Shown piece after piece: positions 9,565 through 12,500 of a stretch of 64,000 nucleotides of DNA. Both the position numbers and the translations under genes were made by a program. The notes below the pieces were generated by a model. That model was given only the letters and a program-made list of their open reading frames with translations. It searched no databases and was not told where the DNA came from. The DNA lies in assembly GCA_046563655.1 (NCBI GenBank), contig CM102290.1, positions 5,580,001-5,644,000 on the forward strand, read 5' to 3'. The stretch is from Yuukianura sp. NJ FZ-2021 (lineage: Eukaryota). Within the stretch, counting starts at the first letter, position 1. Every line of letters begins with the position of its first letter.

Positions 9565-12500
9565 ATGACTACGAACAAACTCTACTACGTCATCGACACG
9601 AATGCCCAGAAGGTACAGTGAGTCAGTTGGACACCATGTCCACATTAACAATTAAGTAATCCATAATTCACTAATTGTTTGGTTGTTTTAGGCCAACTAC
9701 CACTCACCGCATCACCTTCCCACTGGCCGTGTCCTGGTCCTCGACAACCCCAACACTCCCAGTCAACATCACATCACACAGACGAATGTGACGACTCCAG
9801 GAACTAGCCTCAGATTCATCCGAATGGGCCATGTAGCTGATAGCAATGCTCCCAGCCCCATCCAAGTCGTCACTGCTCCAACGTCCAACCTCATTTCAGG
9901 ACAAACCATCCAGATCAAAATGTCTCCTGACCCCATCACCATTGGTAACTCACTACTCAACAATCATAATCCATAGAACAACTAAAACGAAACTAAAACG
10001 TCGCTTATCAAAGTGCCCCGATGTCTAATCCAGATGACCGTGACATGAATTCATTTCAGCCATATGTAGTCTTAGTTGTTTGTGAGAGTGGATTGATGAT
10101 TTTGATTGGTTGAATTGCAGGGCTGCTGGACTTGGCACACAGAGAGTATCAGAGTGGTGACTACGAGAATGCAGAGAGGCACTGCATGCAACTGTGGCGA
10201 CAGGAACCGGCCAACACGTCTGTCCTCCTCCTCCTTTCTTCTATCCACTTCCAGTGTCGAAAACTGGACAAGTAAGATTCAGTTTTAACTTCCAATGTAA
10301 TTGGATTCTGATCTGTTGATTTGTGATGGTTGTAGATCAGCCTCCTTCAGTACTTTGGCCATAAAGCAGAACCCACTGCTAGCAGAGGCCTATAGTAACT
10401 TGGGTAACGTGTTCAAGGAGAAAGGTCAACTGCAAGAGGCACTGGAGAACTACAGACATGCAGTGAGGCTCAAACCAGACTTTATCGATGGATACATCAA
10501 CCTGGCTGCGGCTCTCGTGTCAGCTGGGGAAATGGAACAAGCAGTCCAAGCATACATCACCGCCCTCCAATTCAATTCCGTGAGCTAACAACGAATTCAG
10601 TTCAATTTTGGCGCTTAGAACAGGCCTAACTTTTGATGACTTTAGGACTTGTATTGCGTGCGGAGTGACCTGGGGAACCTGCTCAAGGCTTTGGGGAGAC
10701 TAGATGAGGCCAAGGTGAGAAACGTTTTTGGAATGACGATAGGCGGGAGTTTCCTAGTTTGCCTGCTTCCTTTTCACTTTTGTTTGGATGAGAAGTGGAC
10801 AGAGGAAGGAGTAGCACTGGACTTACTTTGTAGCAGTTGACATACTTCTAGTTGCTGCTCCTCCCTTTGCTCACAGCAGAATGGGCATGAGTGACAAGGA
10901 AAGTCCCCTCTCTCTCTCTCGTCATGATGCTGAAGGTCAAGGACATCCAAGGGCCCACTACAGCTCAATTGAAGTCACCTGGAGACAAAGGGGCACTGCT
11001 TCCTGTTTGTGGTTCCTTCGGACTTTGTATGTTTCTGATTGGGCGCTGCCAGTTGCTGTTTCCCTCTTGACGACTGAAGGACAATTGACGACAATGTCGC
11101 TGCGACATTGGAAACTGCTAGAGGATACTGATGTTGTGTGAATGTTTGTTAGAAACTTTGTGTGAAGTGTATGTGAGCCTACGATTGGGAAGTGGGGGAC
11201 TTGGAGGTGATGCCCATTTGGATGAAGGGCCCCCCTCCCCTGCAGTTGGCGTCTGTGCTTCTCTTTTGTTTTAGTCCAGTGGACAGACCAGCAACACTTC
11301 TCCACACAACACTAATGAATCCTTTCGTTTTTGATCTTGTTCCCGGGTAAGTTGTAGGAAGGTGGCTACCTTCTTTAGCAATCACGCAAGCCACACCCTG
11401 GAGAACTGCGGCCAGCAGCAGCGGATACGTCGGCCAGCAACCCAGGAGCAGCAGATACTTCTCCAGCATCAGGAACAGCAGATACTTCTCCAGCATCAGC
11501 AGCAGCCGCGCACACACTCTCATTCTCCCTCTCTTTGAACCTTCCTTAAGCAAAAGCAAAACTTGGCGCTCTGTTCCACCCATGCGCACCCCAGAAGATT
11601 GTCCACTTTCTGGATTCCACTGGAGTGCAAGGACTGCCGGATTCCAACAATTTCCCTGCAGCGACTGCGCTCCCAATCGCTCCCTGCAGCATCTGCGCTC
11701 CACATCGCTCCTTGCAGCATTTCCGCTCCAGCGATTGCGCCCCATTTGCTCCCTGCAGCGTCTACACTCCCCAGCGCCTATTTAATCCATGCTAAAAGCG
11801 GCAGAGAGCGATTTGGCGCCAAATTGTTCCTGTGGAATAATTTGAATTTGGAGTAGTTACGAGGTAGGCAGGGAAGTAAGTAGGCTAATCGTGGGCTAAT
11901 GGAATTTTGTTTGATTTGTCCTGCCTCATCTTTTGACGACTCCTCATGACTCTCCCTGTGACCTCGTATTTGACCTTGACCTCTGTCCAATGTCCTTCTC
12001 CTTCCCAAGGCATGCTACTTGAAAGCCATCGAGACACGGCCAGACTTTGCTGTTGCCTGGAGCAACCTCGGCTGTGTCTTCAACGCGCTCGGAGAAATCT
12101 GGTTGGCAATTCATCACTTTGAGAAGGCAGTCACGCTCGACCCCAACTTCCTCGATGCTTACATCAACCTGGGCAACGTCCTCAAGGAAGCCAGGATCTT
12201 CGACAGGTGAGGACACTCACTGTTGTCATGACAACAGCACATTTTTAACCTTGGATACTTGTGACTCTAGGGCAGTAGCAGCGTACCTCCGAGCACTCAC
12301 CCTCAGCCCCACCAATGCAGTCGTCCATGGCAACCTCGCTTGTGTCTACTACGAGCAACAGTAAGATTATATCAAATTTTATACATTGAGTCTTGTAAAT
12401 CCGTCACCGATTTTTGGAAATTCGAATTTTGGAGGATCGGGATTCAAAAATTCGGATTAAAATCCGGATTCCGGATTTTTTTACTTGATGAATTTTCGGG

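Follow-up and report, generated by a model that had tools for sequence, protein, structure and literature searches.

Intron 5 of the Yuukianura OGT gene, a probable positional counterpart of the vertebrate detained intron 4 with a candidate poison exon

The window analysed here is a stretch of 64,000 nucleotides (nt) from Yuukianura sp. NJ FZ-2021 (GenBank assembly GCA_046563655.1, contig CM102290.1, positions 5,580,001 to 5,644,000 of the forward strand). It carries a gene for OGT, whose intron 5 is the subject of this study because of its possible correspondence to the detained 'intron 4' of vertebrate OGT. The gene model (Table 1) was built by reading 9300–17400 and testing exon ends by coordinates, and all introns begin with GT and end with AG. 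The predicted product of 1118 amino acids has no internal stops and is 78–81% identical to insect OGTs. Its N-terminus, which depends on a predicted start codon, is unusual in that two small exons (window 9565–9944) add about 100 residues ahead of the first TPR; an unnamed protein of 1111 amino acids (P0007) aligns with the model from model residue 16 onwards. Part of the window OGT was found in a single RNA run from sediment, X1 (share 0.06; three contigs). The X1 contigs lie on positions 12277–12824, 13042–13675 and 16476–16716 and differ from the spliced window gene by at most one letter. They join 12360 to 12662, 13142/3 to 13605/6 and 16509 to 16585, which corresponds to introns 7, 9 and 16 of the model. 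This near-identity indicates that the organism itself or a very near relative lives in such sediment samples.

Intron 5 stands apart from the other 15 introns of the gene. It measures 1295 nt as compared with 57–462 nt, and its GC content is 0.503 as compared with 0.284–0.422. It is a phase 0 intron that splits the coding sequence between K255 and A256 (...LGRLDEAK/ACYLKAIET...). Its acceptor, CCCAAG/GC, is the sole AAG among the 16 introns, the other 15 ending in TAG or CAG, and is preceded by 124 nt free of AG, the final 60 nt of which are 75% pyrimidine. Of the other 15 introns, 14 have an AG-free stretch of 6–51 nt ahead of the acceptor, whereas that of intron 7 spans 225 nt. A reading of this locus made from the sequence alone had described the other introns as AT-rich and about 55 to 460 nt long, this one as 1295 nt long and GC-balanced, and had drawn attention to its CCCAAG end; the measured values bear out all of this. 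The same reading saw no recognisable miniature inverted-repeat transposable element (MITE) in intron 5, and indeed no piece of the intron recurs anywhere in the window. Its further remark that the longer introns owe their length mostly to MITEs fits three introns out of four. Copies elsewhere in the window cover 49–71% of each of introns 7 (12361–12661), 9 (13144–13605) and 13 (15260–15702), which have in common a repeated AT-rich element with many AAATCCGGATTT-like palindromes, suggesting a MITE-like family. The remark does not fit intron 10, of which no copies were found elsewhere in the window. Three sub-threshold Rfam matches (XIST_intron, mir-4650 and MIR839) fall on an inverted-repeat stretch of intron 10 (14123–14290); most likely they reflect hairpin-forming repeat DNA and not an RNA gene.

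Inside intron 5, only two donor-like sites agree with the consensus at seven or more of nine positions, namely CGG/GTAAGT (GT at 11347; 8/9) and GAA/GTAAGT (11876; 7/9). The former is preceded by two good acceptors, so that an exon-like unit of 72 or 67 nt is delimited, depending on whether it starts at 11275 or at 11280. The acceptor of this candidate exon consists of 14 pyrimidines in 17 positions followed by TAG, and an acceptor/donor pair of such quality appeared in 41 of 2000 dinucleotide-preserving shuffles. In the reading frame set by exon 5, this unit contains a TGA codon (11332–11334). Retention of the whole intron would stop translation after 41 intron codons (open reading frame 10646–10840).

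Table 1. Features of the window OGT gene and of its intron 5
Feature	Position in the window	Strand	Basis or remark
OGT gene, 17 coding exons	9565..16742	+	GT-AG model; junctions of introns 7, 9 and 16 in X1 RNA
Exon 5, ends ...LGRLDEAK	10646..10714	+	Gene model
Intron 5: 1295 nt, GC 0.503, phase 0, donor AAG/GTGAGA	10715..12009	+	Gene model
Candidate decoy/poison exon, 72 nt (67 nt from the acceptor at 11280)	11275..11346	+	Acceptor and donor CGG/GTAAGT; TGA at 11332-11334
Conserved block over candidate exon end and donor (GT 11347)	11303..11361	+	87% over 62 nt to locus L027
Tandem array, 27-nt unit, about 3.4 copies	11412..11506	+	Internal repeat
Tandem array, 28-nt unit, 4 copies	11644..11777	+	Five pyrimidine-rich ...TGCAG acceptor-like sites: 11662, 11690, 11718, 11732, 11759
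Second donor-like site GAA/GTAAGT	11876..11881	+	7/9 consensus
AG-free pyrimidine-rich tract	11884..12007	+	124 nt, last 60 nt 75% C/T
AAG acceptor	12007..12009	+	Sole AAG among the 16 introns of the gene; also at 21 of 45 distinct orthologous 3' ends
Exon 6, starts ACYLKAIET	12010..12206	+	Gene model

The position of the intron agrees with that of the vertebrate detained intron 4, as the sequence-only reading had proposed. In alignments of contigs whose match begins at the first exon-6 residue, this alanine (A256) pairs with position 178 in human OGT (chains 7yeh_B and 7yea_A), which in human numbering presumably places the boundary between residues 177 and 178. The equivalent residue in fish proteins is 168 to 180, depending on the isoform. 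Four short fish isoforms in RefSeq (P0224, P0226, P0236 and P0251) have differing leaders and share a common sequence that starts exactly before ACYLKAIE; since all of them join at this point, an exon boundary must be present there in vertebrates. We take it to be the 'intron 4/exon 5' boundary of the human gene, a numbering that rests in part on the description of human mOGT. The start of human mOGT is located inside intron 4 at a distance of 150 bp from the ACYLKAIE boundary, and the leader of 50 residues and the nine TPRs given for mOGT by Trapannone et al. fit this location (PMC4901358).

To follow the intron beyond the window, metagenome contigs were scanned with 65 residues of exon 6. 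At least 602 stretches matched, 470 of which were confirmed, and the best 80 of these 470 were retained for the comparison of loci; the window protein model was mapped onto each of the 80, and the exon 5/6 junction was then read. A row for exon 6 was obtained in 70 of the 80 loci, and every readable row showed intron-like sequence ending in AG directly before the alanine codon. Exceptions were L007 and L056, which represent partial forms described below, and L044, where the match is unreliable. Seven loci (L004, L012, L016, L028, L037, L039 and L040) cross the junction unbroken in the manner of a spliced cDNA, and two (L045 and L061) yielded no usable junction row. The junction is likewise unbroken in L031, a genomic contig of 93 kb in which OGT at 5752–8679 has no intron over residues 173–1115; its product is 77–78% identical to spider and scorpion OGTs, and the intron has apparently been lost in this lineage.

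Where exon 5 is also present on the contig, the orthologous intron measures 510–3557 nt. It is the longest intron in all ten genomic loci with another measurable intron (L029, L038, L042, L046, L053, L062, L065, L069, L071 and L080), the others being mostly shorter than 600 nt and reaching about 1000 nt at most (956 nt in L038; a merged gap of 1077 nt in L071). After merging of near-identical 3' ends, and with at least 40 nt of sequence required for each, 45 distinct orthologous introns remained, of which 21 end in AAG, 10 in CAG and 14 in TAG. Only a few percent of animal introns have an AAG acceptor, and the background measured here amounts to just 0 of 15 in the same gene. Related species inherit the acceptor state by descent, so the 21 cases do not represent 21 independent events; they are, however, spread over springtail-like, copepod-like, mite-like, fly-like and several unplaced groups. 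If, as is likely, the leader of human mOGT has a lysine as its last residue ahead of the common sequence, the vertebrate intron would have an AAG acceptor as well. The AG-free tract ahead of the acceptor has a median length of 94 nt and reaches at least 50 nt in 34 of 42 hand-picked non-duplicate loci (L035, L057, L058 and L068 are among those left out of this set). In the fly-like locus L060 (303–434), 41 residues of which match Drosophila OGT at 98% identity, AAAAG forms the end of the intron, and drosophilid-like sxc genes thus appear to possess an AAG acceptor, too. Another observation concerns L051, L054, L058, L068, L070, L072, L073, L076, L078 and L079, which share the motif CTCTTCTCTGATTGGTC within the last 40 intron nucleotides just before the acceptor. 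This motif includes a CCAAT box in inverted orientation and might belong to a promoter or act in splicing.

The loci could be placed to different degrees. Among the best 80 of 470 loci, the window OGT is closest to L003 (88% over 863 residues), which itself is closest to springtails. L002 is 92% identical to a springtail OGT, L004 92% identical to that of Daphnia, and L017 93% identical to an aphid cluster. The closest named protein of L006 is the EukProt entry Tk05946 (82%), a label that we take to stand for a Tigriopus copepod; identity of L006 to insects is 77–80%, and there is no vertebrate among its best 120 matches. Compared with human OGT, loci L020, L030 and L033 score 1540–1570 bits. 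This is similar to the copepod-like L006 (1544 bits) and far below a 100% self match (about 1970 bits); these three loci are therefore not from vertebrates. L033 is 86% identical to its closest named protein, and a search of the protein atlas for its taxon returned only bacterial TPR/GT41 clusters. No vertebrate locus was recognisable among the 80, because the TPR exons are too conserved.

Several cDNA-like contigs of other invertebrates hold this intron and no other. L006, L009, L017 and L020 contain exon 5 together with upstream exons, then a complete GT..AG intron of 2550, 2641, 1027 and 1707 nt, respectively, and then 498–860 residues in a single unbroken match; none of the four keeps a second intron. 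L003, L008 and L033 have the same downstream part, preceded by 248, 528 and 1501 nt of intron that reach the contig start. In two cases an intron-holding contig has a differently spliced partner. L016, which is spliced, and L055, in which an intron portion of at least 3261 nt leads into the exon start, come from one organism; they are 100% identical over the 123 nt that they share but diverge ahead of the junction. L033 and L056 (100% identity) form a same-organism pair in which the intron-holding contig stands beside a partly spliced one. Locus L010 is also 100% identical to L047 over a common 123 nt, but it starts at the junction and is therefore uninformative with respect to splice state. 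From their structure and from the spliced/unspliced pairs we infer that the intron-holding contigs originate from RNA and not from the DNA of genes with a single intron. L033 has intronic blocks in common with the multi-intron genomic loci L062–L065. For the aphid-like L017, contiguity can be compared with a known boundary: aphid RefSeq isoforms reveal an exon boundary before SVSAYLRAL, across which L017 is contiguous. The short aphid isoforms P0202, P0206 and P0210 (847–849 amino acids) have a common leader that is joined before SVSAYLRAL; as this is the next boundary, they were ruled out as starts at ACYLKAIE.

Partly spliced forms provide a view of internal sites in use. In L056 the 5' part of the intron is kept and an internal donor, TTTG/GTAGGT (between positions 230 and 231 of L033), is joined to exon 6, with 1271 nt bounded by GT and AG removed. 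In L030, exon 5 is joined to internal sequence whose sixth codon is a stop; the rest of the intron on the 3' side is retained as far as its terminal CAG. L007 has an insert of 145 nt at the junction which lacks GT/AG ends and contains an in-frame stop. The insert of 230 nt in L035 was not interpreted owing to its ambiguous 5' end. BLAST comparison of the L007, L030 and L035 inserts with all loci gave no partner sequence. We also considered the length classes of copepod-like proteins as a count of retention. Among 48 representatives, 15 were spliced across the junction, 3 had an intron-derived leader, 14 started at KAIE and 16 further downstream. The latter two classes are inseparable from truncated contigs, and this count was rejected.

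The sequence-only reading had suggested a search for conserved blocks in orthologous introns, and such a block was found. In an all-versus-all comparison of introns the window gave one match, between 11303–11361 and positions 75–136 of L027 (87% over 62 nt; E 1.4e-10). Near-invariance extends from the last part of the candidate exon through its donor to 15 nt beyond. In exon 6, window and L027 are identical at 154 of 195 nt, and at only 32 of 62 (52%) synonymous third positions of identical codons; compared with these, the intronic block is the more constrained. A second lineage presents a similar picture in that the donor used in L056 is located in the middle of a block common to L033 and L062/L065 (78% over 80 nt), with perfect cores on either side of the GT, while the neighbouring exon agrees at 22 of 39 third positions. 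Intronic conservation in these two lineages thus lies far above neutral. Additional blocks, each confined to its own lineage, are shared by L006, L009 and L050 and by the L051–L079 group.

Taken together, we propose that the intron at 10715–12009 is a positional orthologue of the detained 'intron 4' of vertebrate OGT, that it is spliced slowly or conditionally, and that it contains a decoy or poison exon; we assign this reading a probability of roughly 0.55. It builds on the observed position and anatomy of the intron, on the conservation around its internal donor and on the retained and partly spliced forms in other invertebrates. Mechanistically, the pseudo-exon (11275/11280–11346), with its strong conserved donor and its in-frame stop, would be taken by the splicing machinery as a decoy. 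Acting together with the AAG acceptor, which is weak and follows a long AG-free pyrimidine tract, this decoy would delay the joining of exon 5 to exon 6. Three outcomes are conceivable. The intron could be kept, giving a non-productive RNA with a stop after 41 intron codons; the poison exon could be included, with an equally non-productive result; or splicing could be completed to yield OGT mRNA. By extension, the intron would be retained in this organism too, the pseudo-exon would be the cause, and the balance between the outcomes may respond to the level of O-GlcNAc as it does in mammals. The interpretation offered in the sequence-only reading is partly supported by our data, and its idea of a homeostatic circuit inherited from the ancestor of bilaterians is a well-motivated inference and not a result.

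More tentatively, and with slightly less than even confidence, we consider that detention of this intron by an internal poison or decoy exon and a poor 3' end, with a long AG-free pyrimidine tract and in many cases an AAG acceptor, is an old means of autoregulation in animal OGT that arose before the vertebrates. It would have been kept in hexapods, copepods, aphids, mites and other invertebrates despite introns that can no longer be aligned, and the vertebrate silencer would be one lineage's version of it.

A number of observations weigh against these proposals. X1 covers only 7 of 30 bins, and exon 5, intron 5 and exon 6 lie in an uncovered part (9400–12193). The block in the window is conserved with a single locus, L027, on whose contig the block is preceded by just 75 nt, so that conservation of the candidate-exon acceptor cannot be judged. 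Blocks of different lineages, when compared with each other, show no similarity. Ordinary CAG or TAG acceptors are present in 24 of the 45 orthologous introns. A generic scan of 15 full-length orthologous introns for strong exon-like pairs detected one in the window only (1 observed against 0.52 expected); absence from the 14 others means that a strong internal exon is not a general feature. By the exon-pair measure the decoy sites used in other loci are weak, as the human ones are reported to be (PMC12017769). No poly(A) was seen at the ends of 20 contigs. Park et al. describe Drosophila OGT as being without an element resembling the intronic splicing silencer (PMC5588854), and Trapannone et al. 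found no significant homology to intron 4 in Drosophila, C. elegans and zebrafish (PMC4901358). Finally, gene models that start at ACYLKAIE could reflect internal promoters instead of retention.

Some of these points would also be expected if intron 5 were an ordinary long intron that is removed last and was caught in assemblies of total RNA. The conserved block would then represent something else, for instance an enhancer or a pseudo-5' splice site unrelated to OGT dosage, and the AAG acceptor would merely be tolerated. The missing coverage of the exon 5–exon 6 region in X1, where no retention is seen, the contigs without poly(A) ends, the negative decoy-exon scan in 14 of 15 introns and the 24 CAG or TAG acceptors are all compatible with this explanation. 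Nevertheless, we regard it as unlikely. Extra length, a long AG-free tract and AAG recur at one and the same position across lineages whose introns cannot be aligned, and the intron is kept in contigs that have lost all others, including those downstream of it. Moreover, internal splice sites are in actual use in L056, L007 and L030, and in two lineages the conserved blocks are centred on a donor site.

A different role is conceivable for an intron that harbours an alternative promoter and first exon. The product could be an N-terminally shortened OGT, similar to the proposed human mOGT, or a non-coding transcript, and the seemingly retained contigs would be transcripts of this kind. This idea finds support in gene models of Folsomia candida (P0005, P0215) and Polyplax serrata (P0098) and in P0093, in which a short leader is joined or read through to ACYLKAIE; the same type of leader is present in the unnamed contigs P0102, P0128, P0134 and P0166, and the fish isoforms are built likewise. 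In one group of loci, a CCAAT-box-like motif, CTGATTGG, is conserved near the acceptor. In the window, however, an open frame of the mOGT type, with an ATG in the 3' end of the intron and continuous with the next exon, is not present. A stop in frame with exon 6 (11977–11979) is not followed by an ATG before that exon, which rules out a leader read through into exon 6. Among possible ATG-bearing exons of intron 5 in frame with exon 6, none has a donor better than 5/9, and the two strong donors cannot yield an open frame into exon 6. Furthermore, L006, L009, L017 and L020 include exon 5 and upstream exons, so that their transcription did not begin inside the intron. The mOGT frame, for its part, is not conserved even among mammals, as far as is described in PMC4901358. 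We therefore judge this explanation to be quite improbable. Least probable is that the bulk of the intron is a relic of a mobile element, a nested gene or a non-coding RNA, with GC content and length unrelated to splicing control: a GC content unlike that of neighbouring introns, the internal tandem arrays and long stop-free frames (200 codons on the minus and 144 on the plus strand) might hint at such an origin, but there is no copy elsewhere in the window, no Pfam family at the curated cut-off in seven stop-free frames from both strands, and no Rfam match in the intron at E values up to 1.

If our preferred reading, i.e., detention of the same intron via a decoy exon in arthropods and other invertebrates, is correct, a large part of the animals would have inherited the circuit from a common ancestor, and it could be dissected in springtails, aphids, Daphnia, copepods and flies. 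It would also become possible to separate a conserved core from lineage-specific sequence, and this core appears to consist of the position, a weak 3' end with AAG and a long AG-free tract, and an internal donor. To annotators, such detention would explain why so many 'short OGT isoforms' begin at ACYLKAIE. In a literature search that was thin on subscription journals, OGT detention was found described for vertebrates only, and variable intron retention in Drosophila sxc (PMC11765297) without a link to intron 4.

Among the closest known systems is intron 4 of vertebrate OGT. Its detention serves O-GlcNAc homeostasis and is described as a vertebrate trait conserved to jawless fish (PMC5588854). 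In mammals, two detained introns lie on either side of a poison or decoy cassette exon, half-spliced and cassette-included products occur, and the intron contains an ultraconserved element of 397 nt (PMC7261177). The window resembles this system in the boundary before ACYLKAIE, the length of the intron, the internal stop-bearing exon-like unit and the presence of intronic conservation, and other invertebrates resemble it in the forms observed: whole intron kept, one half kept, or cassette included (Park 2017, PMC5588854; Tan 2020, PMC7261177; Govindan and Conrad 2025, PMC12017769). There are also differences. The internal donor in the window is strong (8/9) whereas human decoy donors are described as weak (PMC12017769), the candidate exon comprises 72 nt as opposed to 143–153 nt in human, and the conserved blocks of the window and of other invertebrates (62 and 80 nt) are far smaller than the mammalian ultraconserved element. 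For the intronic splicing silencer of vertebrate intron 4, these papers report no homology outside vertebrates.

Human mOGT (Trapannone 2016, PMC4901358) has its parallel in several arthropods with transcripts or gene models that read from the intron end into the next exon. The window differs in having no such open frame, and the human frame itself is described as unconserved in most mammals. Drosophila sxc is a further arthropod OGT whose introns are removed in a regulated or variable manner: variable intron retention occurs in adult neural tissue (PMC11765297), and post-transcriptional control via a long intron is cited in PMC5588854. The passages available from these two papers name no particular intron and draw no link to the intron 4 position or to O-GlcNAc. 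Outside OGT, retained introns with decoy exons in SF3B1 and ARGLU1 (Parra 2018 and 2020, cited in PMC12017769) and autoregulation by poison exons likewise combine a long intron with an unproductive exon inside it and with products that are non-productive. SF3B1 and ARGLU1, however, are splicing-factor genes, whereas OGT is an enzyme the product level of which is thought to be sensed.

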